64,000 bases of DNA, from contig CAWBOS010000010.1 in the NCBI GenBank assembly GCA_963790475.1, forward strand, positions 1,248,001 to 1,312,000, in the 5' to 3' direction. This stretch comes from an uncultured delta proteobacterium. Lineage in GTDB: Bacteria; Desulfobacterota; RBG-13-43-22. The translations under genes were made by a program, and so were the position numbers. The notes under the pieces are model-generated. The model was not told where the DNA came from. It searched no databases and was given only the letters and a program-made list of their open reading frames with translations. Positions within the stretch are counted from its first letter, which is position 1. Every line of letters starts with the position of its first letter. Positions 14,799-41,703 of the stretch are shown here, piece by piece.

Positions 14799-16214
14799 TC
14801 ACGACGCTTGTTTTAGCAGCCGATCCGGTTGGGATTCAATGATATTTTTTTTAGGTTCAAGCCCAAATTCTTTCATCCGGTTCCAAATGGTGATCCTGGA
14901 TACCCCTAGGAGTCTCGCGGCCTCCGATTGGTTTCCTTTGGAGCGGTCCAAGGCCGCCAGCAAATCCCGCTTTTTTCTTTCTTTGGTATTGATTGAGGGG
15001 CTCTCCGACAAAGGACTTTTTCCAATTTTTGTGACTATGTTGACCGGAAGGTGATAGGGTTGGATCAACGATTCCTGACAAGTCACAAAGGCATATTCAA
15101 AGGCGCTTCTTAATTCCCGGACATTGCCCGGCCAATCATAGCCTATGAGGATGTCTATGGTGTCTTTGCTGATTCCTTTGATCGGCTTTCCGCTTTTGAG
15201 CTTGATCCGGCGGAAAAAAGAATCGGCCAATAAAGGGATATCATCCCTTCTCTCTCTCAATGGAGGCAGATGGATGGGGATGACATTAATCCTGAAAAAA
15301 AGATCTTCCCTGAATCGTCCTTGGGCCACCAAAGCATTCAAATCTTTATTGGTGGCCGAGATGATCCTGACATCAATGGGAATAGGTCGTTGATCCCCAA
15401 CCCGTTCGATCACTTTATCTTCCAAAACCCGTAGCAACTTGACTTGGGTGGAAACAGGAAGATCCCCGATTTCATCCAAAAAGATATCCCCACCCTGGGC
15501 GGCCTCAAACCGGCCTTCTCGATTCCGGTAGGCACCGGTATAAGCCCCTTTGACATGCCCGAACAACTCGCTTTCCAACAAAGCCTCAGAAAGGGCGGCG
15601 CAATTGACCTTGACCAAGGGCTTACCTTTTCGAGGACCGCTTTCATGAATGGCTTCGGCGGCCAACTCCTTTCCGGTACCGCTTTCCCCAAAAATAATCA
15701 AAGGGGCATCGGACTTCGCGGCATTGGCTATCAGATCAAATACCCGGGTCATGGCCGGAGAGATACCGAGCAATCCATGAAAGCCGTCTTTTGATCTTAG
15801 TTCGCGGCGAAATTCTTCGATCTGGTTGTCTTTTTCGATAATCTCGGTAATATCCGTCAGCGTTTCAACAGCGCCGATGACCTTTCCTTTCTCATCATGA
15901 AGGAGTGAGGCATTTTTCAGAATATGGAAAGGATGACCGTTTTTTTTTCTCATGGTGCATCGCTTCATTTTGATATCACCGGTCTTAAATAAGGTACACC
16001 AGTGATGACCGGTCTGATCCCGGACGATGTTGCACATATTGCAATCCAGAACAGAACAGGGTTTCCCGATCAACTCCCCGTTTTTGTACCCCATGAGTCC
16101 GGTTATGGCCTTATTGACTGAGACAATAAAACCCTCCCGATCAATAATAATAATCCCTTCCTTGATCGTATCCACAACGGTTTTCCAGTATTGGTTCATT
16201 TTGTATTCCAACAT
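14799..16214 (-). CDS. PAS-domain sigma54-dependent transcriptional activator
   Basis: N-terminal Cys-rich PAS; GESGTGKE, ESELFGHVKGAYTGA, FLDEIG, WPGNVREL; C-terminal Fis HTH. Confidence 0.95.
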   Translation of the reverse strand: MLEYKMNQYWKTVVDTIKEGIIIIDREGFIVSVNKAITGLMGYKNGELIGKPCSVLDCNMCNIVRDQTGHHWCTLFKTGDIKMKRCTMRKKNGHPFHILKNASLLHDEKGKVIGAVETLTDITEIIEKDNQIEEFRRELRSKDGFHGLLGISPAMTRVFDLIANAAKSDAPLIIFGESGTGKELAAEAIHESGPRKGKPLVKVNCAALSEALLESELFGHVKGAYTGAYRNREGRFEAAQGGDIFLDEIGDLPVSTQVKLLRVLEDKVIERVGDQRPIPIDVRIISATNKDLNALVAQGRFREDLFFRINVIPIHLPPLRERRDDIPLLADSFFRRIKLKSGKPIKGISKDTIDILIGYDWPGNVRELRSAFEYAFVTCQESLIQPYHLPVNIVTKIGKSPLSESPSINTKERKKRDLLAALDRSKGNQSEAARLLGVSRITIWNRMKEFGLEPKKNIIESQPDRLLKQAS

Positions 16215-16227
16215 AGGAATTTACTCC

Positions 16228-16265
16228 TGTAAAATATTAAACAACTGTTAATTAATAATTTAACA
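16228..16265. promoter_or_regulatory. Putative enhancer-binding-protein sites
   Basis: TGT-N10-ACA (16228-16243) and TGTTAA-N8-TTAACA (16246-16265), about 110-150 bp upstream of the sigma54 promoter. Confidence 0.5.
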
Positions 16266-16374: not shown

Positions 16375-16390
16375 TGGCACCGGTTATGCA
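16375..16390 (+). promoter_or_regulatory. sigma54 -24/-12 promoter
   Basis: TGGCACCGGTTATGCA (GG-N10-GC) upstream of tusA, divergent from the sigma54 activator gene. Confidence 0.8.
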
Positions 16391-16446
16391 GTGAATAATG
16401 GACAATTGTTAAATTCGATTAATACCCAACAAGGAGGAACACGATA

Positions 16447-16701
16447 ATGACCCCAGCAGAATTAACCGCTATTCAAGCAGCTAACGTCGTAGACGCCCGA
16501 GGCAGTGCCTGTCCCGGTCCCATTTTGGAAGCCAAAAAGGGGATCGGCAAGGTCAAGGTGGGGGAAATTTTGGAAGTCTTATCCGGTGACCTGGGTACCC
16601 GACAGGACATCCCGGCCTGGGCCAGAAAAGTGGGACACGAATATTTAGGGCTGGTGGAAGCGGACGGTTATGACCGGCTCTATGTAAGAAGGAAAAAGTA
16701 G
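16447..16701 (+). CDS. tusA: Sulfurtransferase TusA family protein
   Basis: VDARGSACPGPIL (CPxP), GEILEVLS.D.G...DIPAW. Confidence 0.93.
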   Translation: MTPAELTAIQAANVVDARGSACPGPILEAKKGIGKVKVGEILEVLSGDLGTRQDIPAWARKVGHEYLGLVEADGYDRLYVRRKK

Positions 16702-16710
16702 GAAAGAAGG

Positions 16711-17115
16711 ATGACTACACCGGCCAACCAAGGGAAGATTCTAATCTTAGCCACAGACCACTGTGCCTATCCGGGGGCCAACTCGGTCGGGCAGGCCCAT
16801 AGCCCTTACCCGGCTAATACCTATGTGCTCAGGGTGCCTTCCCCGGTGCTCTTTCCAGAAACCTTTTACTTGGATTGTTTTCATAAAGGGATCGGCGGGA
16901 TCATTATCATGTCCTGTGGAACCGAATGCCCTTATCCCGGCGCCTATGAGGTCTTGGCTAAAAGGGTCGACCGGGTTTATTCCATGATGAAGGAGAAGGA
17001 TCTGGATATACGACGGCTTAAGCTTACTGCCATTTGTACGGTCTGCAACCGGGCTTTTCTTAAAGAGGTAAACGAGATGAACAACTTGGTTCAGGAGTTG
17101 GGGGCGATCGGCTAA
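16711..17115 (+). CDS. mvhD: MvhD/FlpD-like hydrogenase iron-sulfur subunit (variant)
   Basis: CAYPGANSVG...YP.N..VLRV, GIIIMSCG.ECPY, I.RL.L pattern. Confidence 0.8.
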   Translation: MTTPANQGKILILATDHCAYPGANSVGQAHSPYPANTYVLRVPSPVLFPETFYLDCFHKGIGGIIIMSCGTECPYPGAYEVLAKRVDRVYSMMKEKDLDIRRLKLTAICTVCNRAFLKEVNEMNNLVQELGAIG

Positions 17116-17118
17116 GAG

Positions 17119-18426
17119 ATGAATAATACTCAGAACCTGAAATTTGATACCTTGATCATCGGCAGTGGTATTGCCGGCCTCCAGGCCGCCCTGGACCTGG
17201 CTGATCAAGGGTTCAAGGTAGCCGTCGTGGAAAAAGACGCCACCATCGGCGGGAAGATGATTCGGCTTTCCAAGGTATTTCCCACCCTGGATTGCGCCAG
17301 TTGTATAACCACCCCAAAAATGGCCGCAGCCGCCCATCATGAAAACATCACCCTCTTCACCTTCTGTGAGTTGAAATCTCTGGATCGTCAAAATGGTCTT
17401 GTTGCAGCTACGGTAACCCAGAAACCCAGGTATGTGGACCCGGATAAATGTATCGGCTGCCGGCAATGCGAATACGAGTGCCCGGTCTATGTTCCGGATG
17501 AGGAACAGGGGGGGTTCAATGCCCGCAAGGCTATCTATATCCCCTTTTCCAATGCCATTCCACAAATCGCTCTCCTCGACCCTGAAAACTGCCTGTTGTG
17601 TGGAAAGTGTGTCAAAATCTGCCCTACTGAAGCCGTAAATTTTTTTCAAGAACCCAAGGACCTTTTTCTTGAGGCTAAAGCCGTTATTGTAACCACCGGT
17701 TTTGAATTAACCCCTTTAGAGGACAAACCGCAATATGGACAAGGGAAGATCCCTAATGTGATCACGGCTCTCCAAATGGAAAGGCTTCTGGCCCCCCATG
17801 GGCCTTATAATCGAGTCTTACGCCCTTCAGACGGCATGGAGCCGGATTCGATCGCCTTTGTCCAGTGCGCCGGTTCAAGAGATAAAAGCATGGGCATCTC
17901 TTATTGTTCCAGAGTCTGTTGTATGTACGCGATTAAGCAGGCCATGCTGCTCTCCGGGGCCTTGCCCTTAGCGGATATTACTATTTATTATATGGACATC
18001 CGGGCCTTTGGAAAGGGCTACGAACAATTTTTTCAGAACGCTCAGGCTATGGGTATCCAATTTGTAAAAGCCAAGGTGTCCATTGTTAACGCAACTGTCG
18101 AGAGCACTGTGTCTGTCCGTTATGAGGCCCAGGATGGCGAGGGAGTGGTCATGGCTGAACATGATCTGGTGGTCCTTTCCCTGGGGATGGTCCCTGGCTG
18201 GAATCCAGGCAACTATAGTAAACTGGATGCCGATTCGGATGGGTTTATCAGAACCATACAACCCAAGATAGCCCCAACCCTGACCGCTCAAGAAGGTTTT
18301 TTCGTGGCCGGTACGGCCGCTGGACCAAAGGATATTGTTGACACTATTGCTGAAGCCGGAGCGGCTGCCATGGAGGCTACCAAGTATTTACTTCGTAATA
18401 ATAAGACGACTCAAATGGCCAAATAA
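17119..18426 (+). CDS. hdrA: Heterodisulfide reductase subunit A-like flavoprotein (short, with inserted ferredoxin domain)
   Basis: IIGSGIAG, KVFPTLDCASC, two CxxCxxCxxxCP motifs, QCAGSRD, YCSRVCCMY, GPKDIVDT. Confidence 0.92.
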   Translation: MNNTQNLKFDTLIIGSGIAGLQAALDLADQGFKVAVVEKDATIGGKMIRLSKVFPTLDCASCITTPKMAAAAHHENITLFTFCELKSLDRQNGLVAATVTQKPRYVDPDKCIGCRQCEYECPVYVPDEEQGGFNARKAIYIPFSNAIPQIALLDPENCLLCGKCVKICPTEAVNFFQEPKDLFLEAKAVIVTTGFELTPLEDKPQYGQGKIPNVITALQMERLLAPHGPYNRVLRPSDGMEPDSIAFVQCAGSRDKSMGISYCSRVCCMYAIKQAMLLSGALPLADITIYYMDIRAFGKGYEQFFQNAQAMGIQFVKAKVSIVNATVESTVSVRYEAQDGEGVVMAEHDLVVLSLGMVPGWNPGNYSKLDADSDGFIRTIQPKIAPTLTAQEGFFVAGTAAGPKDIVDTIAEAGAAAMEATKYLLRNNKTTQMAK

Positions 18427-18468
18427 CGTTTTGAAAAAATTTTCCAACAATCCCTTGGGAGATAGGGA

Positions 18469-20397
18469 ATGACCGAGTCAATAAATAATAAAGCCACAGA
18501 AATCCAAGATCCGAAAGTCGGTGTATATATCTGTCATTGCGGAGGAAATATTTCCGATCATGTGGACATGGAAACCCTTCAACGGAGGACGGAAAAAATC
18601 CCCGGAGTAGCCCTGGCTCGTACCAATATGTTTATGTGTTCAGATCCAGGACAGGAATTGATTATCGAGGATCTTAAAAATGGTTTGGTGGATCGGGTGC
18701 TGGTGGCCTCCTGCGCCCCCAATCTCCACGAGACGACTTTTCGCCAAACCCTTTCTCGAGCAGGAGTCAACCCTTATCTTTACGAACATGCCAATATCCG
18801 AGAACAGGTAAGCTGGGTGCACCACGGTCAAGCCGCTACAGACAAAGCAACCCGGCTCGTCGCCGCCGCCGCAGGTAAGGCTAAAAATCTAAAGCCTTTG
18901 GAACCTCTGCGTGTGAAAGCCAAACAACATGTGACGGTCATTGGTGGGGGTCTGGCCGGATTGCGCTGTGCCAAGGATCTGGCCGATCGAGGTTTCGAGG
19001 TGGTTCTAATTGAAAAGTCTCCTTTTCTGGGAGGGAAGGCCGTGCTCATTGACCGTGTGGCCCCTACGGGAGAAAAGGCGGTTGATTTGGTTTCCGAGCT
19101 GACCACAGCGGTACTGAAAGCCCCCACTATTAAGGTCTTCACCTGCGCTCAAGTAACCGGGTTTGAGGGTTATATAGGCAATTTTCGTCTTAAGATAACC
19201 GCCTCACCCTCGGTTTCAGACGAAGATCGGAAAAAAATTGCCGACACGGCTAAAGACGGCCGCTCCCCTTACCAATGTGATCCTTTCATTGGGGTCTATG
19301 CCAAAGATATCCCCCAAGAGACCGAGGAACTAATCATTGAAACAGGGGTAATCGTGTTGGCAACTGGTTTTAAATCCTATGTCCCGAAAATAGGAGAATA
19401 CGGGTACCAAGAATTTAATAAGGTGATTACCCTGCCTGCCTTTATCCAAAAGTTCGCAGAAAGGTCAAAAAAGGGAAGCTTTCTGGAAATTGATGGTCGG
19501 GAAATACATAATATAGCTCTGATCCACTGTGTGGGCAGTAGACAAATCCCGGGCATACATGAAGAAAATGAATCGGGAGAACTGAATGAATACTGTTCCC
19601 GTATTTGTTGCACCGCTACCCTGCAGGCAGCCCTCCGGATCCGTGAAAATTATCCGGAGACACGCGTCTATGAATTGTATCGGGACATCCGTACCTATGG
19701 GCGGGGACAAGAGGAACTTTATAACCAAGCTTCCAGCGAAGGAGTAGTCTTTTTGCGTTTCAAGGCCGAGGATTCCCCGGTCGTAACCGCTAACGATTCT
19801 TCGAGTCCCTACCCCTTAAGGGTTACGGTAAAGGATACGCTCACCTTTGATGAAGAGGTGGAGGTCCCGGTAGATCTGGTGGTCTTGGCTAACGGCCTGG
19901 AACCGCATCCGATCCCCGACTTGGTTGAGATGATGAAACTCCCTGTTGGGGGAGATCGTTTTTTATTGGAAGTGCATCCCAAACTTCGGCCCGTTGAACT
20001 TTCCATCTTGGGCATCTTTCTGGCCGGGACCTGTCAAGCCCCCATGGATATGGGAGAAGTCTGTAATGCGGCCGGGGCCGCAGCGGTAAAAGCCTCGGCC
20101 CTACTGGCCCGGGGATTTGTGGAAATGGATCCTTTTGTGGCCGAAGTGGATCTTAACAAATGTAAAGGTTCAGGGGCCTGCGTAGAAGCCTGTTTAAATA
20201 AAGGGGCTCTGGAAATGGCCGAAGTGGAAGTTGAAGGTCAAACGGTTTTACGGGCCCGAATATCTCCGGCTTTATGCAAGGGATGTGGGGCTTGTGTGGC
20301 CGTATGTCCGGAAAAGGCCATCAATCTTCAAGGCTGGACCTTGAAACAATATGAAGACATGGTTGATATGATCGTCTCCGATGATCTGATCACCTGA
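18469..20397 (+). CDS. hdrA: Heterodisulfide reductase subunit A-like protein (N-terminal CHCG domain, C-terminal ferredoxin)
   Basis: VGVYICHCGGNI, CSDPGQ, ANIREQVSWVH, VIGGGLAG, HCVGSR, YCSRICC, HPKLRPVE, CKGCGACVAVCP. Confidence 0.93.
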   Translation: MTESINNKATEIQDPKVGVYICHCGGNISDHVDMETLQRRTEKIPGVALARTNMFMCSDPGQELIIEDLKNGLVDRVLVASCAPNLHETTFRQTLSRAGVNPYLYEHANIREQVSWVHHGQAATDKATRLVAAAAGKAKNLKPLEPLRVKAKQHVTVIGGGLAGLRCAKDLADRGFEVVLIEKSPFLGGKAVLIDRVAPTGEKAVDLVSELTTAVLKAPTIKVFTCAQVTGFEGYIGNFRLKITASPSVSDEDRKKIADTAKDGRSPYQCDPFIGVYAKDIPQETEELIIETGVIVLATGFKSYVPKIGEYGYQEFNKVITLPAFIQKFAERSKKGSFLEIDGREIHNIALIHCVGSRQIPGIHEENESGELNEYCSRICCTATLQAALRIRENYPETRVYELYRDIRTYGRGQEELYNQASSEGVVFLRFKAEDSPVVTANDSSSPYPLRVTVKDTLTFDEEVEVPVDLVVLANGLEPHPIPDLVEMMKLPVGGDRFLLEVHPKLRPVELSILGIFLAGTCQAPMDMGEVCNAAGAAAVKASALLARGFVEMDPFVAEVDLNKCKGSGACVEACLNKGALEMAEVEVEGQTVLRARISPALCKGCGACVAVCPEKAINLQGWTLKQYEDMVDMIVSDDLIT

Positions 20398-20414
20398 ACT
20401 TTTAGAGGGACTCG

Positions 20415-20717
20415 ATGTCTACAAAACAGAAAGAAGGATTGGTCGATCAGGGGGCTTTGAAAATACTTCGGGAGAAAAGAAAAGAGACGATCGCCCGAGT
20501 CTCTGCCATCATCAAACGACAGCGTAAGGATATCCAAGCCTTAAAAACCCTTTTACGAGAGGGAGAACGAACCATCCCGCAACTTGCAGAAATAATGAAC
20601 CGGCCCTCTTCAGAGGTTTTCTGGTACGTGGCCGCTCTTAAAAAATACGGAGAGATCTTCGAAGGGGAAAAGGTCGGGAGCTACTTCCTTTACAGGTTGG
20701 CTGACAAGTCCGAGTAA
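20415..20717 (+). CDS. Winged helix-turn-helix-like protein
   Basis: TIPQLAE.M......VFWYVAALKKYGEI pattern followed by a beta-wing. Confidence 0.75.
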   Translation: MSTKQKEGLVDQGALKILREKRKETIARVSAIIKRQRKDIQALKTLLREGERTIPQLAEIMNRPSSEVFWYVAALKKYGEIFEGEKVGSYFLYRLADKSE

Positions 20718-20742
20718 GAAGAATGATGTTAAGAAAGAAACC

Positions 20743-21060
20743 ATGACCATGATAACCGTTCATCCTGACTTTGCTAAGGAATTGAAACATTTTGGCGTAG
20801 ATCACGCATTGGATTGTTTCAATTGTGGCACTTGTACGGCCATCTGCCCCCTGATTTTTGATCATTTCCCGAGAAGATTAATCCGCTACATCCAAATAGG
20901 GGCCAAGGATAAGATAATGGAAAATCCCAAGGAATTATGGCGCTGCCTCCATTGCGGGCTTTGCACCCGGACCTGCCCGAGAGAAGCCGATCCCGGCGAG
21001 GTAATCCTGGGATTAAAACGCTATGTAGTAAACTACTGGAGGAAATCCAGACATGTATAA
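20743..21060 (+). CDS. HdrC-like 4Fe-4S dicluster protein
   Basis: CFNCGTCTAICP and WRCLHCGLCTRTCPR. Confidence 0.88.
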   Translation: MTMITVHPDFAKELKHFGVDHALDCFNCGTCTAICPLIFDHFPRRLIRYIQIGAKDKIMENPKELWRCLHCGLCTRTCPREADPGEVILGLKRYVVNYWRKSRHV

Positions 21061-21988
21061 CCCAAGGGATATCATAGATATATTAGCTGGGAATGTCAGA
21101 AAAACCAGAAGTCCTTTCGCAATCCCCAATTTTCTAGTGAACCGGTGGTGGAAAACACTTAATCTTCCTAAAAAAGGGGATGCTCTTCTTTACACGGGGA
21201 TGATGTATCAACTGGTCCCCTATATAAAAAAAACAACTCAGTATTTGGAAATGTTTGAAGACCGTAAACCGGCCGATTGGGTAGGCTTAGGCCGATATCA
21301 GCCCAAACGCCTTTCCGGGATCGGTATCGCCATGATCACCCCAGGAGTTGAAAAGCGAAAAGCCAACCAAGTCTTGCAAGATATTTCCTTAATTCTGGGC
21401 AAGTCCCGGGTAGACTTTTATTATGAACCCCGGTTGGATTATTACAGCGGCATATTGCTTTACGATTTAGGAGATCAAGAAAGCTTTATTCAACACGCCC
21501 AATTTGTTGCCGGTAAACTCCAAAGGGCTGGGGTCAAAAAAATAATCACCGTGGACCCTCATACCACTTATGCCCTGAAGGTCCTTTATCCAAAATACAC
21601 AGGGATAAGTTTTGATGTCCAATCCTACATTGAACTGATCAATTTCGAGTCGAACCAAGGAGGTGTTCAGGTTACTCTTCACGATCCCTGTTTTTACGGA
21701 AGGTATCTGGAGCTTTCCGATGCCCCCCGGGAGGCCTTAAAAAAGCAGGGGATCGAATGTCTCGAAGTGAGAAATGCCAGGAGTTTTACCAACTGTTGCG
21801 GAGGCCCGGCGGAGTCTATTTCTCCTAAACTTTCCAGGGAAGTTCTGGACCGTAGGGTTGAGGAATTACGGTTTACCGGGGCACCTATTATTGCCATGTG
21901 CCCTATCTGCCTGGGCAATCTCCAGAGGTCGGGTGCCCAAGTGGAGGACCTGTCCCAGGTGCTTGCTCGTTGTGCAATATCAGCTTAA
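21053..21988 (+). CDS. CCG-domain (HdrB/GlpC-like) Fe-S protein
   Basis: TLHDPCFYGR, TNCCGGP, AMCPIC; the first CCG repeat is degenerate (YYSG, TVDPH). Confidence 0.85.
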   Translation: MYNPRDIIDILAGNVRKTRSPFAIPNFLVNRWWKTLNLPKKGDALLYTGMMYQLVPYIKKTTQYLEMFEDRKPADWVGLGRYQPKRLSGIGIAMITPGVEKRKANQVLQDISLILGKSRVDFYYEPRLDYYSGILLYDLGDQESFIQHAQFVAGKLQRAGVKKIITVDPHTTYALKVLYPKYTGISFDVQSYIELINFESNQGGVQVTLHDPCFYGRYLELSDAPREALKKQGIECLEVRNARSFTNCCGGPAESISPKLSREVLDRRVEELRFTGAPIIAMCPICLGNLQRSGAQVEDLSQVLARCAISA

Positions 21989-22054
21989 AGGCGAAGAGGA
22001 TTGTCCTCTCTGCTTCAAGATAAAAAATAACAAAAAATTTGAAGGGAGAATAAA

Positions 22055-22429
22055 ATGTCGGAAAAAGAAGAAATGGTTATGTTTATGTGTACCCATGCAG
22101 GAGAAAACCCTGAAAAAGCGGCCATACCCTTTGTTATGGGCAGCGCCGCCTTGGCTATGGACGTCAAGGCCCTGGTGGTTCTACAAGAAGAAGGGGTATA
22201 TCTGGCCCAAAAAGGATACGCCGAACATATGACTAAACCGGGAGGGTTTGAAGCCTTGCCGAAGTTAATCGCCGATTTTTTGGAATTAGGTGGGGAACTG
22301 AAGGTCTGTGTCCCTTGTATCAAGGCCAGAAATATCAGCGAATCCGACCTGATCGATAAGGCCCAAACCACGGCTGCCGGTCAACTCATTACCGATTCTC
22401 TTAGGGCTGACTCTGTCTTTACCTACTAG
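22055..22429 (+). CDS. DsrE/DsrF-like family protein
   Basis: THAGENPEKA.IPFVMG..ALA, LQEEGVYLA, KVCVPC...R. Confidence 0.88.
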   Translation: MSEKEEMVMFMCTHAGENPEKAAIPFVMGSAALAMDVKALVVLQEEGVYLAQKGYAEHMTKPGGFEALPKLIADFLELGGELKVCVPCIKARNISESDLIDKAQTTAAGQLITDSLRADSVFTY

Positions 22430-22457
22430 GAATCCATTCTTAAAACATTTTCCCCGG

Positions 22458-22488
22458 AAAAGGCCCTGGAACTTGACCAGGGCCTTTT
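22458..22488 (+). terminator. Rho-independent terminator (possibly bidirectional)
   Basis: AAAAGGCCCTGG-loop-CCAGGGCCTTTT after the dsrE-like gene. Confidence 0.75.
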
Positions 22489-22581: not shown

Positions 22582-22923
22582 GTGGCTTCCTCGCGTTATC
22601 AATCCATTGCCGACCGGCTTTTGGAAAAGCGGGAGAAAGCGGACCCCCAAGCGAGAAAGATGCGGGAATGGCGCAATGTAGCGGACAGCCGGATACAATC
22701 CACCTCGGCCGGAATCGCTTATCTATTACTCATACTCCATCAGATGGGACTTGGGGCCACCTGGATGACCGGCCCTATGCAGGCTACGGGAGCCATTCAG
22801 AAAATCCTCAAGGTAAAGCCCGGATGGGAGATAGTCACCTTCATCCCTGTGGGCTATCCCGATGATCAGCCAAGGCCAAGAAGCCGCAAGCCGGTCAACG
22901 AGGTCACGGAAGCAATCAGATAG
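22582..22923 (+). pseudogene. Nitroreductase C-terminal fragment
   Basis: QSTSAGIAYLLL.LHQMGLGATWMTGP, FIPVGYP, RKPVNEV; the N-terminal RRSIR/APS region is absent. Confidence 0.7.
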
Positions 22924-25475: not shown

Positions 25476-25829
25476 TCAAACATCTCGAGGTTCGGTGAGC
25501 AATTTGAAGCCGTCAAGAATCTCTGTTAACCTATTTTTTGAGACCTGTCCGATTTTATCAACGAGATCACTCTTGTTAACTGTGAAGATTTGAGAAATGT
25601 TAACTACGCTTTTTCGGGGGAGATTGGCTTCACCTTTATTCAGCAGGACATTACCGGGAGCCTTGGCCCGGTGAAGGTTCGTGGTAAGGGAACAAACGAC
25701 CACAGTATTGATTTGACTGGTGTTAAATAGATTGTTTTGAATGACGAGATGGGGATGCCGATATCCCGGTTCCGATCCCTTAGGATCAGAAAGGTCTAGC
25801 CAATAGATTTCACCTTGCTTAATCACCAA
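25476..25829 (-). CDS. mazF: Type II TA toxin, PemK/MazF family endoribonuclease
   Basis: QGEIYWLDL..P.GSEPG.RHP.LVIQ, SVVNISQIFTV.K. Confidence 0.92.
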   Translation of the reverse strand: MVIKQGEIYWLDLSDPKGSEPGYRHPHLVIQNNLFNTSQINTVVVCSLTTNLHRAKAPGNVLLNKGEANLPRKSVVNISQIFTVNKSDLVDKIGQVSKNRLTEILDGFKLLTEPRDV

Positions 25830-26080
25830 GACTCTTTCTCAATCAATTTTTTTTGTTTGCCGCGCATGGATTTTAAGATTCTTCTTTCTTCTTCTTCAGG
25901 AAAGTCTTTATAAGCCTCATTCAACCGGGTCAGCAAAGCCTGATTTTCTTGTTTTTTAACATAGTCTTGCACAGCCAGGGTGAATACCTTGCTCCGGGAA
26001 ATATGCAAGTTATTGGCTAATTTATTAATTTTTAAAAATAATTCTTCATTAAGGGATATAGCTGTTTTGACACCGGCCAT
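25823..26080 (-). CDS. Type II TA antitoxin (RHH, ChpI-like)
   Basis: KTAISL.EELF...LA..L.ISRS.VF..AV; overlaps the toxin start. Confidence 0.88.
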   Translation of the reverse strand: MAGVKTAISLNEELFLKINKLANNLHISRSKVFTLAVQDYVKKQENQALLTRLNEAYKDFPEEEERRILKSMRGKQKKLIEKESW

Positions 26081-27501: not shown

Positions 27502-29043
27502 CCCGGATGTTGCATAAAAAAAGTGCAAATTTTGTAAAGACCGATCAGGCGGCCTTTTTAAAAGCATCCAGATACACAAAAAAGTCTCTTTGGACTGATT
27601 CATTTCCATTAAGCGTCAGGGTTAGTTGCTTTTGGGGTAACGTTAATCTCCCTGCTCTTTGAATAATCAGATGGCGTAAAGTTTTTAATTCTTCAAAACA
27701 CCATAGAGGGGCTCTTTTCTCGGTCGTCCCTCTTTCCCTTGGACGAGCCGCCATTTGTAATTCGCGGGTTAAATTGTGGGCCATGATTGCAGCCATCGTA
27801 TAAAGCTGGTTTCCGCCCCAGCGACGAACAGGGATATAATCCATTTGAGCTTGAGATTTCAATTCTCCAAAGAGTCCTTCCTGGTCGGCGCGCCCATTAT
27901 GGAACATCAATACCTTCTTAGCCTTGACCCGCTTGTTGGTTACGATGACTTTAAATTCGTAGCCTTCCTCCCGAGGAACGAATAAGTCCAGTTGAATCGG
28001 ACCTCGGAAAGCCAGGGAGACTCGTTGACGGATGCACAGGAAACGAAATCGGTTATCCCATTTCTTGGGTTTCCAAAACGTTTCAAACCAAGACCATCGG
28101 TCATCCAGCCGCTTCCAACGTTTTCGCTCCTGGATCATTTGTTTCCATTCGGCAAAACGTTCAAAAGGCACTGACAGAGTAAACTCAACCCCTTGTTCTT
28201 CTAAAAACGGTACGAGGTTATCGTTAAAAAAGGCGCTGTCCAGTCGGGCTTCTATGATTACGCCGGGAAGGGCTTCCTTCAAGAGGCGTAGGCATTGTTC
28301 GATAAATTCCCGTGCTCCATTAGAGTCGTGGACATTTCCGGAACGAAACAGGGTATCGAAAACCTGCCCGGTTTGGGCAATGGTGCAGAACAAAGGATAA
28401 TAACTGCGGGCTCCTTTTTTCTTTTTGTTATACCCCACAGCGGTTCCCTCCGCTCGACGCTGACAGGTCCAAAGAACGGATCCGTCAAAATCCAGTGTCA
28501 GACGAAAAGGAGCCAACTTTTGCAGTCTGGCAATAACCTGGTTCCGGCATAGTTCCCGAACTTTTTCGATGGCCGAAATATCAATCGTTCGCAAAGCGCG
28601 AGAAACCGTTGAGACCTCTGGCAGCCTTTTTAACCCTAATAAACGCTTGATCAAGGGATCATCTTGGTAATAATCCAGATCCCTCAGCTTACGGAAACCC
28701 AGTAAAAGGTGAAAGATCAAAAGAAGCATAATGAGGTGATGACCAAATATCTCGGAAACTTTTAAATGGTCAAAACATTTCTTGAGTTGTGCTTTGAGAT
28801 TCAGGTTCTGGAGCAGTGGCTGATAAATAACTAGCCCGGCAAATGAGGTCAATTGTTGATTTTCAAACTTGATGGCTGGAATTTTAAACATTCGACTAAA
28901 AATATTCCTTTTGCTATACTTCACCTTAGGTGGCCTCCTGTATCGGTTCTTTTGAGATGTGCTAATTTCACTTTAGCCAATACTGGAGCCACCTTCAAGC
29001 ATTTTCATGGTGTTTTATGCACTTTTATTATGCAACTATGAGG
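27502..29043 (-). mobile_element. IS1380 family insertion sequence, apparently complete
   Basis: Terminal IRs CCCGGATGTTGCATAAAAAAAGTGCA / CCTCATAGTTGCATAATAAAAGTGCA; TATA direct repeats at 27498-27501 and 29044-29047. Confidence 0.9.
27545..28924 (-). CDS. IS1380 family transposase
   Basis: LTSFAGL, LTLDFDGS, SYYPL, RSGNVHD, RLDSAFF, HNGRADQEG.FGELK. Confidence 0.95.
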   Translation of the reverse strand: MKYSKRNIFSRMFKIPAIKFENQQLTSFAGLVIYQPLLQNLNLKAQLKKCFDHLKVSEIFGHHLIMLLLIFHLLLGFRKLRDLDYYQDDPLIKRLLGLKRLPEVSTVSRALRTIDISAIEKVRELCRNQVIARLQKLAPFRLTLDFDGSVLWTCQRRAEGTAVGYNKKKKGARSYYPLFCTIAQTGQVFDTLFRSGNVHDSNGAREFIEQCLRLLKEALPGVIIEARLDSAFFNDNLVPFLEEQGVEFTLSVPFERFAEWKQMIQERKRWKRLDDRWSWFETFWKPKKWDNRFRFLCIRQRVSLAFRGPIQLDLFVPREEGYEFKVIVTNKRVKAKKVLMFHNGRADQEGLFGELKSQAQMDYIPVRRWGGNQLYTMAAIMAHNLTRELQMAARPRERGTTEKRAPLWCFEELKTLRHLIIQRAGRLTLPQKQLTLTLNGNESVQRDFFVYLDAFKKAA

Positions 29044-40593: not shown

Positions 40594-41703
40594 TCACTTT
40601 ATCTCGGCATACCATAGATCATCGGTCCCCCGGCCTTTTTCCTTCACACGATCCCGGGCGGCCTTTTTCTTCTCCAGGGCCGCTTTTTTTAGTTCTTCGA
40701 AATTCCCCTCCGGTACCTCGCGGAATTCGAGAACACCTTTTGACCTGGCCAGGTCCATCAGCTCCTGACCCCGTTTGGACCGGACTATGACCTGATTCCA
40801 GATCCTGGTTTCCGACCAGTCCTCCGGCAGCCTGGCTGACCCGACTGAGATATCGGCGAATTCGGCGGTGCTGTCCATACAATAACGACAGGCTTCCCGG
40901 ACACAGTCATTAATGGCCTCCATGGGAAAAGAAAAGGTCTCCTTGTTAGTGTAAATTTCCACCGATCCTTTTCCCGGAGGGATGTCCATGCCGATAATAT
41001 CGGACAGACCGGTTTTGGTCTTCAACAGATCCACGAAGGACCGCCAGGAAAGGGACCAGCCGCAGAAAAGGCCGATAACCAGTTTCAACTTGTCGATTTG
41101 GTTGTCGTTAGTCGCTATGGGTTTCGAACGCATCTTGGCCAGGGTCTGGGCCTGGCAAGGAGTAGCTACGACTCCTATTCGTTGTTTTTCTCCCTGGACC
41201 GTTTTGTTGAATTCAGCGACGGTCGCGGAAACTATAAACTTGCTTTTCCCCCGTTTTCTGATCTCATCGGGGTCGCTAACCGCCACCCCATGATGCTGAA
41301 AATCTTCCGTGTCTTCAGCGACAATGGCTGTATCAATCAGCCCTTCCTGGAGGGCCAGGGTTAAAAGGGCCGTGACCGTTCCTCCGTGTTGGGCCTGGTT
41401 GCGCACCTGTTCATCCGCCGCCCTGGCGATATAAAATCCTTTCACCGACCCTAACTCCGGGGTCAAATCCGCTTCATCAAACAGTTGTTTCCTCAACGAC
41501 TCATAGTCTGTAGGCGTCCGGGGGCAAAAGGCATAACATCGACCTTCCTTGAGGTCACAGGGATGAAGCACGATGGTCTGGTCATTGTAGATCACCTGGT
41601 AAGGGCATAGGCCGACACAGGCCCCGCAGCCGGTGCACAGTTGGGCATTTTGAACCATCTCCTGGAGTTCTTTTTGCCCCCTGCTTTGGTTTTGATCTTC
41701 CAT
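40594..41703 (-). CDS. Coenzyme F420 hydrogenase/dehydrogenase beta subunit (FrhB/FdhB) family protein
   Basis: CTGCGACVGLCP, AQHGGTVTALL, VATPCQ, IGLFCGW, CRYC.D.TAEFADISVG. Confidence 0.9.
   Translation of the reverse strand: MEDQNQSRGQKELQEMVQNAQLCTGCGACVGLCPYQVIYNDQTIVLHPCDLKEGRCYAFCPRTPTDYESLRKQLFDEADLTPELGSVKGFYIARAADEQVRNQAQHGGTVTALLTLALQEGLIDTAIVAEDTEDFQHHGVAVSDPDEIRKRGKSKFIVSATVAEFNKTVQGEKQRIGVVATPCQAQTLAKMRSKPIATNDNQIDKLKLVIGLFCGWSLSWRSFVDLLKTKTGLSDIIGMDIPPGKGSVEIYTNKETFSFPMEAINDCVREACRYCMDSTAEFADISVGSARLPEDWSETRIWNQVIVRSKRGQELMDLARSKGVLEFREVPEGNFEELKKAALEKKKAARDRVKEKGRGTDDLWYAEIK

Follow-up and report, generated by a model that had tools for sequence, protein, structure and literature searches.

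Hdr-like complexes have been described in several settings. The sHdr system is defined by a syntenic gene set, either shdrC1B1AHC2B2 (type I) or shdrC1B1AHB3-etfAB (type II), and for sHdr-linked proteins it was shown that the cysteine of the TusA CPXP motif binds polysulfide-derived sulfane sulfur and that DsrE3 acts as a donor to TusA (PMC11094781). In HdrA, the residue pair E356/K409 has been proposed to mark flavins that bifurcate (PMC12054007, PMC9430772), and a natural fusion of HdrA classes A6 and A12 is known as type II HdrA (PMC12054007). Here we describe a unit of eight genes in a 64,000-nucleotide stretch of DNA from an uncultured delta proteobacterium (contig CAWBOS010000010.1, positions 1,248,001 to 1,312,000; the whole stretch is hereafter called the window), in which Hdr-like subunits stand between the sulfur carriers TusA and DsrE. 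The unit is genuine and widespread, seems to be a variant of the Hdr family that has so far gone uncharacterised, lies outside the definitions of sHdr, Flx-/Mvh-/Fdh-Hdr, and canonical QmoABC, and is a candidate for a persulfide reductase.

The eight open reading frames (ORFs) are all on the forward strand and span 16447-22429 in the order tusA, mvhD-like, short hdrA, long hdrA, a winged helix-turn-helix (wHTH) gene, small hdrC, the CCG-protein gene, and dsrE, with intergenic gaps of -8 to 66 nt. The unit and its regulatory features are as follows.

14799..16214, reverse strand: divergent PAS-AAA+-HTH (HTH_8) sigma54 activator (Pfam)
16238..16251, no strand: candidate activator-binding palindrome of the TTAACA-NN-TGTTAA type, with one mismatch here
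16375..16390, forward strand: sigma54 -24/-12 promoter, TGGCAC-N5-ATGCA, the sole strict match in the window
16447..16701, forward strand: TusA sulfur carrier (PF01206; CPGP motif, C22)
16711..17115, forward strand: MvhD-fold protein with a rebuilt cysteine set (FlpD/MvhD, PF02662)
17119..18426, forward strand: short HdrA, 435 aa (Pfam; HdrA chain comparison)
18469..20397, forward strand: long HdrA, 642 aa (HdrA chain comparison)
20415..20717, forward strand: small basic wHTH protein (weak TrmB/HTH Pfam matches, below cut-off)
20743..21060, forward strand: small HdrC/QmoC-type 2x[4Fe-4S] subunit, 105 aa (two-cluster ferredoxin match; NCBIfam)
21053..21988, forward strand: CCG-family protein, predicted catalytic subunit (single CCG domain, residues 207-290)
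22055..22429, forward strand: DsrE-family sulfur carrier (PF02635; C85, C88)
22458..22488, forward strand: terminator-like 12-bp hairpin (RNAfold, -21.4 kcal/mol)

A first-pass annotation of this DNA had proposed a single transcription unit with these eight genes in this order, running from a -24/-12 promoter to a terminator, and the strand, order, and spacing of the ORFs bear out the gene content. The divergent PAS-sigma54 activator that it placed upstream was recovered by Pfam. Its promoter also stands, as the strict pattern matched only once on both strands of the 64 kb window (16375-16390), and its terminator is plausible, if non-canonical: the hairpin at 22458-22488 has only four Ts, located within the stem, and is missing from the output of the terminator scan. 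In agreement with its statement that such partners are absent from the unit, no hydrogenase, Flx, formate dehydrogenase (Fdh) catalytic subunit, lipoate-binding protein (LbpA), or lipoate assembly gene was present in the unit or detected among the 53 window ORFs scanned with Pfam (17 plus 36). A stand-alone gene for an FrhB/FdhB-family Fe-S flavoprotein is located at 40594-41703 on the reverse strand, 18 kb downstream of the unit, where it adjoins indolepyruvate-oxidoreductase-like genes.

Gene set, order, promoter, and cofactor motifs were found to be conserved as one unit. A scan of GTDB species representatives with the CCG protein yielded at least 599 stretches, 578 of which were confirmed, and the locus counts given below refer to the best 80 of at least 578 loci. 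These 80 loci (numbered L001 onwards) belonged nearly all to Desulfobacterota/Deltaproteobacteria, including the named sulfate reducers Desulfosarcina variabilis and NaphS2. The full eight-gene order was kept in 55 of the 57 loci long enough for testing, both exceptions being located at scaffold gaps, and each gene was in place in nearly all loci (tusA 55/57, mvhD 55/57, short hdrA 60/62, long hdrA 73/74, wHTH 76/76, hdrC 79/79, and dsrE 77/78). Three loci were without a core gene (L041, L044, and L077), and real gene loss was ruled out in them, as every break coincided with a 100-N scaffold gap. The first-pass annotation had suggested a survey of this order and had set the adjacency of tusA and dsrE to homologous hdr clusters beforehand as a test on which its proposal could fail; both genes kept their places at the frequencies above, and the attempted refutation failed.

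Relatives of the CCG protein extended further, with 1046 found among 1782 candidates in a 90%-clustered protein set and 95 clusters at E values up to 1e-30 among 50%-identity representatives. By name, the distant relatives included Hyperthermus butylicus, Desulfurococcales, Acidilobaceae, Korarchaeum, Njordarchaeales, Thermodesulfobium, and Anaerolineae, and Atlas summaries placed clusters of CCG relatives in Thermoproteota and Chloroflexota. Hyperthermus butylicus, Desulfurococcales, and Acidilobaceae are reducers of elemental sulfur (S0). The sole hint of synteny outside Desulfobacterota came from two frameshifted read-throughs of the MvhD variant into short HdrA (P0389 and P0390, approximately 55% identity). 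A plasmid search with the CCG protein returned 29 records, none of which covered 80% of the query. A description of the cluster was not found in searches of an open-access library, although surveys of HdrA neighbourhoods beyond our reach may already draw the locus; the eight-gene order is undescribed in the available parts of PMC12142623, PMC13490349, PMC10504309, PMC13416013, PMC3949148, PMC5109826, PMC9751629, PMC3654217, PMC11094781, and PMC8477390.

The two sulfur carriers retained their active sites. C22 of the TusA CPGP motif was kept in 55/55 homologues, and the DsrE cysteines C85 and C88 were present in 75/75 and 69/75, respectively, so that the unit shares with sHdr the linkage of a TusA and a DsrE protein with active-site cysteines. 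The motif itself differs from the CP[L/I]P of sHdr TusA. The only PDB match of DsrE was 3MC3 (E 1.3e-5), which is counted among the DsrE3A proteins (PMC11094781). In six loci (L005, L007, L012, L014, L017, and L028), the dsrE slot was filled by a distant paralogue with 26-28% identity, indicating that the function, rather than the lineage, is kept at this position.

The Hdr core is built around a complementary pair of HdrA proteins, both of which scored approximately 398 bits against methanogen HdrA chains. Against 6TJR, which we take to be sHdrA, the short and long HdrA scored 128 and 93 bits, respectively. The short HdrA consists of an FAD domain with an inserted 2x[4Fe-4S] ferredoxin and an FPTLDCxSC motif, and it has neither an N-terminal cluster domain nor a C-terminal ferredoxin (the HdrA6 architecture). 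Its E221 and K273, the equivalents of E356/K409, were retained in 57/57 sequences, and the FPTLDCxSC cysteines C59/C62 in 56/57. The long HdrA consists of an N-terminal four-cysteine domain, an FAD domain, and a C-terminal ferredoxin, and is without E356/K409, the inserted ferredoxin, and the FPTxDC cysteine; I326 replaces E356 in 64/64, and position 386, at the K409 site, is N, H, Q, or S in all 61 of the 64 sequences for which it was listed. The first motif of its C-terminal ferredoxin mostly lacks the second cysteine, position 568 being T in 34 sequences, S in 11, H in 6, and C in 5. The bifurcating-flavin signature of Hdr modules is therefore carried by the short HdrA only.

Because the two proteins carry complementary domains, the sequences suggest that they form an asymmetric heterodimer. 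In HdrA dimers, the FPTxDC cysteine completes the N-terminal cluster of the partner, and ligation of the long HdrA's N-terminal cluster by the short HdrA in a heterodimer would be consistent with this. The single five-domain HdrA of Flx-/Mvh-/Fdh-Hdr is split here into two proteins, and a short sHdrA without ferredoxin domains was not found, the two proteins having 435 and 642 aa with ferredoxin domains present. When the short and long HdrA are read together, they have the domain order of type II HdrA (A6 + A12), and a 998-aa fused double HdrA with the same domain order was found in L068.

Trees of HdrA were computed from a subset of loci (13 sources in a quick tree and 7 in a second tree), with references consisting of one Flx-Hdr HdrA (Ilyobacter), one sHdrA (Picosynechococcus), the second-set HdrAs described below, and the fused HdrA, and with no Qmo among them. 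The Ilyobacter and Picosynechococcus references were two plasmid records found with the short HdrA and were assigned by gene order. In the second tree, the short and long HdrAs formed separate clades with 100/100 support, on stems of 0.9-1.2 changes per site. The long HdrA joined the sHdrA reference with an SH-aLRT of 95 in the quick tree and 89/87 in the second tree; as this is an unstarred join at which long branches meet, a sister relation was not accepted. Both copies thus stand in their own fully supported clades relative to Flx-Hdr and sHdr (one reference each), which, together with the conserved order, upholds the proposal that TusA and DsrE belong to an Hdr-like system of a distinct kind.

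The remaining subunits also depart from their nearest relatives. Of the five cysteines conserved in solved MvhDs, the MvhD-like protein lacks two, namely the first one of CNWC and that of RVMC; it retains C18, C69, and C73 and has gained C109-T-V-C112, a pattern observed in 53/53 homologues. The canonical MvhD cysteine set was therefore not found, though the fold is kept (model pLDDT 79.6; Foldseek TM 0.80-0.82 to four MvhD chains). Since the new CTVC pair follows the fourth strand of the model, it could face the old cluster site. The wHTH protein is small and basic, with an N-terminal helix, a winged HTH, and no cysteine, and would be either a regulator or a structural subunit. The small HdrC has eight cysteines in 78/78 sequences and no membrane domain. 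Its best NCBIfam match was qmoC, with 76.5 bits (the cut-off is 300) over positions 4-94 of the 360-position model, and the HdrC model gave 51 bits; with 105 aa it is not a membrane di-heme QmoC.

The CCG protein contains one intact predicted non-cubane [4Fe-4S] site, made up of C213, C248, C249, C283, and C286 in 80/80 loci, whereas its N-terminal site is degenerate (YSG, DPH). The same combination of one CCG with a degenerate DPH was observed in 117/117 new distant matches. An HdrB with two intact CCG sites is thus absent, and the match to HdrB was weak (E 0.07 in PDB; 50 aa aligned to Ilyobacter HdrB). By BLAST, sHdrB1 had no match and sHdrB2 matched weakly (E 1e-6, 101 aa), and the NCBIfam DsrK model did not match the CCG protein of the window. 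Among 150 distant representatives, 23 had an N-terminal ferredoxin fused to the CCG domain (one of another build, P0241, with 670 aa), and these fusions support the view that the small HdrC and the CCG protein form one HdrD-like unit. DsrK and HdrD-type CCG proteins have a single site and a trisulfide substrate. The unit would resemble them in directing one non-cubane site at a protein-bound sulfur carrier, but it has no membrane cytochrome partner, and the carrier would be TusA, not DsrC.

The promoter and the activator were conserved as well. The strict pattern was matched upstream of tusA in 38/53 loci, at a shuffle rate of ≤0.02 per region, and a relaxed pattern in 11 of the remaining 15. 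The divergent activator was present in 46/51 testable loci; in the other five, it was co-directional (L003 and L004), the locus was one of the scaffold-gap loci (two cases), or there was none (L074). Five cysteines of its PAS domain (C53, C58, C61, C73, and C86) were each invariant in 48/48 homologues. The closest described regulator is OrpR of Desulfovibrio vulgaris, which binds a redox-sensing [4Fe-4S] cluster and, like the activator here, is a sigma54 activator of the PAS type that is encoded divergently from its target and has conserved cysteines in its PAS domain (PMC8359166). By analogy to OrpR, the cysteine-rich PAS domain is a probable Fe-S redox or sulfur sensor. OrpR differs in having three cysteines (C52, C61, and C65), compared with five here in a C-X4-C-X2-C-X11-C-X12-C arrangement (PMC8359166), and in its palindrome and regulon. 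The palindrome near the activator start was found with ≤2 mismatches in 24/44 loci against 2.3 expected from shuffles, a partly circular test because the consensus was drawn from the same loci.

From these genes, we infer that the unit encodes a soluble cytoplasmic persulfide (sulfane-sulfur) reductase fed by DsrE and TusA, a reading whose direction, substrate, and donor are all inferred and on which our confidence is evenly balanced. The activator would switch on the sigma54 promoter, making the unit redox- or sulfur-inducible. Polysulfide, S0, or oxidised thiols would be the sources from which DsrE gathers sulfane sulfur to hand it on to Cys22 of TusA. In the putative HdrA heterodimer, the short protein would provide the bifurcating flavin and the ferredoxin-docking clusters, and the long one a non-bifurcating flavin and an MvhD-binding C-terminal ferredoxin. 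Electrons would then travel through the small HdrC to the CCG subunit, which would take them up at its single non-cubane cluster and cleave the TusA persulfide, releasing HS- and regenerating the thiol. This step would parallel that of HdrB on CoM-S-S-CoB and that of DsrK, which acts on the DsrC trisulfide. Candidate donors are reduced ferredoxin and/or NADH, or variable modules such as MetVF, CoA-disulfide reductase, and a second HdrA-MvhD set, and the physiological role might be polysulfide clearance together with an extra electron sink. The reading is supported by the kept gene order, the invariant carrier cysteines, the hold of dsrE on its slot, the recurrence of further sulfur-transfer genes in different sub-lineages (counted below), and a second TusA-fold gene upstream of tusA in 31/53 loci. 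The reductive direction is favoured because the hosts include sulfate reducers and distant CCG relatives occur in S0 reducers.

Several points weigh against a reductase. No conserved electron-input module was detected, either by a Pfam scan of 137 neighbouring proteins (35 plus 102 of the 181 remaining cluster representatives), which contained no NiFe hydrogenase or Flx, or by BLAST with FlxA/B/C, which had no match in the 80 loci or the window; the lack of an encoded donor is the main weakness of the reading. In 10/80 loci, metV-metF follow the unit co-directionally, which fits a role of the Hdr-type methylenetetrahydrofolate reductase (MTHFR) kind. The product of the second TusA-fold gene, which is located between the promoter and tusA (e.g., L005:4825-5058), is mostly without the catalytic cysteine, one sub-lineage having CPW. 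Both TusA and DsrE are promiscuous carriers with further roles in oxidation and biosynthesis, and the 80 loci are closest relatives from nearly one phylum and not independent observations.

The absence of an encoded external donor would be explained if the unit were a sulfane-sulfur disproportionase, in which one carrier-bound sulfur would give up electrons at the flavin of the long HdrA or at the rebuilt cysteines of MvhD, and a second would be reduced by them at the CCG site, while bifurcation would produce reduced ferredoxin. The two different carriers that bracket the unit, the lack of a conserved donor module, the loss of the usual MvhD cysteine pattern, and the grouping of the long HdrA core with the single sHdrA reference (89/87) would agree with this. 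However, that grouping is the unstarred one that joins long branches, the short HdrA scores nearer to sHdrA than the long one does (128 versus 93 bits, 6TJR), no LbpA is encoded, and proteomes of disproportionators point to YTD and molybdoenzyme clusters, with no such unit mentioned in the available parts of the articles (PMC13490349, PMC9751629); we therefore regard disproportionation as improbable. An electron hub resembling the Hdr-type MTHFR would relate the unit instead to the HdrCBA-MvhD-MetVF systems of Sporomusa and Moorella, the HdrA pair and MvhD linking a protein thiol/disulfide couple to methyl-/methylene-tetrahydrofolate or to some other step of catabolism, with TusA and DsrE as recyclable carriers and no net sulfur reduction. 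MetF was found in 13/80 loci and MetV in 12, a run of dsrE, an orphan gene, metV, and metF in 10, and genes for a corrinoid protein, MtaB, and RACo follow in D. variabilis; moreover, the Sporomusa HdrA has two flavin domains, one with the E/K pair, which is the same asymmetry (PMC9430772). Against these stand the absence of co-transcribed metV-metF from the window, the absence of MetF from 38 of the 50 loci with ≥4 kb downstream, and the composition of the described MTHFR clusters, which hold HdrCBA-MvhD with a two-cluster HdrB and in the available text name no sulfur carriers (PMC9430772). The unit also differs from type II HdrA and Sporomusa in being unfused, with optional metVF, a single-site CCG, and TusA and DsrE. 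A hub of this kind has in our view a low probability.

A closer tie to sHdr would make the unit an oxidase that converts carrier-bound sulfane sulfur to sulfite feeding Dsr, without lipoate. TusA and DsrE3-type carriers are hallmark sHdr partners (PMC11094781), a persulfide substrate would follow the same logic, and the small gene between hdrA and hdrC recalls shdrH. Nevertheless, neither the shdrC1B1AHC2B2 nor the shdrC1B1AHB3-etfAB order is present, and the unit has two full-size HdrAs that match methanogen HdrA at 398 bits and sHdrA at only 93-128, where sHdr has one short sHdrA. It also has an MvhD, and its C and single-site CCG subunits are present once, compared with two of each in sHdr. 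There is also no B1 homologue, no LbpA or lipoate gene (GcvH-related genes were found in only 3/80 flanks), and the unit is under sigma54 control in anaerobic hosts, all of which makes such an oxidase very improbable. The Mvh-, Fdh-, and Flx-Hdr modules share with the unit the HdrA fold, the E356/K409 flavin (in the short HdrA), the MvhD fold, an HdrC-like relay, and the CCG site, but the unit differs from them in its split HdrA, rebuilt MvhD cysteines, and one-site CCG protein, and in having sulfur carriers in place of a hydrogenase, Fdh, or Flx. The inventory of a short and a long HdrA with MvhD resembles QmoAB, with two HdrA paralogues and an MvhD domain, and the small HdrC scores best with the Fe-S part of the qmoC model. 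An offshoot of type II Qmo would deliver its electrons to a reductase from outside the unit, either AprAB or a different one, with TusA and DsrE supplying cofactor sulfur; type II QmoAB are closely similar to HdrA and can be present where Apr or Dsr is missing (PMC10504309). The unit, however, has no heme-b membrane QmoC domain, its CCG protein is an additional subunit with an invariant catalytic site, and no aprAB or sat linkage was seen among the 137 scanned neighbours. MvhD is a separate upstream gene, and the search for longer forms, a weak argument, gave only the frameshift read-throughs; we give a Qmo offshoot a slim chance. Identity with the benzene-activation 'Magic' cluster was rejected, since the proteins of that cluster are described as FAD oxidases and HdrC-like proteins (PMC13416013).

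Extending the reductase reading, the unit could represent a third, lipoate-independent cytoplasmic pathway for sulfane sulfur beside Dsr and sHdr, namely a bifurcating persulfide reductase or disproportionase in which two unlike HdrAs pair asymmetrically and MvhD is re-ligated, common to hundreds of Desulfobacterota species, S0-reducing archaea, and Chloroflexota. We put this forward tentatively and consider it rather unlikely; if true, it would conserve energy from S0 or polysulfide in organisms in which the route is unexplained, and it might bridge methanogen-type Hdr and sHdr. Cytoplasmic S0/polysulfide handling by anaerobes and sulfur disproportionation are still open problems, and the operon, being compact and conserved to a high degree, is a candidate here. 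The hosts include abundant marine and soil Desulfobacterota, and because cultured strains (Desulfosarcina variabilis and NaphS2) carry the operon, it is directly testable. The HdrA pair, the MvhD with moved cysteines, the single-site CCG protein, and the new, probable cysteine-rich PAS sensor each inform how Hdr components are re-purposed.

The flanks of the unit were variable. Genes related to sulfur transfer included DsrE2 in 10/80 loci, rhodaneses in 6, YeeE/YedE in 5, and CoA-disulfide-reductase-like genes in 3, with any of these in 19/80; four further CoA-disulfide-reductase-like genes were below the cut-off, and a peroxiredoxin gene was found in 5 loci. In Desulfosarcina variabilis, the co-directional genes after the operon (L056:12171-17861) encode MetV, MetF, the corrinoid protein, MtaB, and the RACo activator. 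An orphan gene for a 234-aa protein was located near the unit in 51/80 loci, usually after dsrE (L056:11427-12128), sometimes in two or three copies or upstream of the activator, and was absent from the window. Its product has conserved cysteines in RKCYxRGC..LCxH and RCxxC motifs and was modelled as two repeated helix/beta-meander domains (pLDDT 82). It belonged to no Pfam or NCBIfam family, and its best structural comparison (VIA Z 5.6 over 62 residues) gave no clear match, which is no evidence of a new fold; the protein may be a ninth component. A second HdrA/HdrA-MvhD/HdrD-like set was found downstream in 11 loci (L005, L009 [L009:11486-15141], L014, L015, L021, L024, L026, L028, L038, L055, and L079), comprising a 410-430-aa HdrA without K409, a degenerate HdrA fused to a canonical MvhD, and a split HmcF/DsrK/TmcB-like protein.

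Some arrangements were confined to single loci or small groups. In L068 (11448-18849), the operon is followed by a second activator and TusA and by the 998-aa fused double HdrA, which has a canonical MvhD. L053 (1784-2509), L061, and L066 have two family-less small genes upstream of the activator and rhodanese and YeeE/YedE genes downstream, an arrangement that resembles, as a resemblance only, the YTD/DsrEFH type II cluster. In L074 (13546-20332), genes for a PhsA-like molybdoenzyme, a GltD-like flavoprotein, and a TauE exporter adjoin the operon on the opposite strand. In the window, the ORF at 22582-22923 on the forward strand is probably a gene remnant; its match to the nitroreductase family is confined to the C-terminal third. 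Further downstream on the reverse strand are a gene for a MazF/PemK-type toxin, upstream of which lies a likely antitoxin gene (25476-26080), and a DDE transposase gene (27545-28924).

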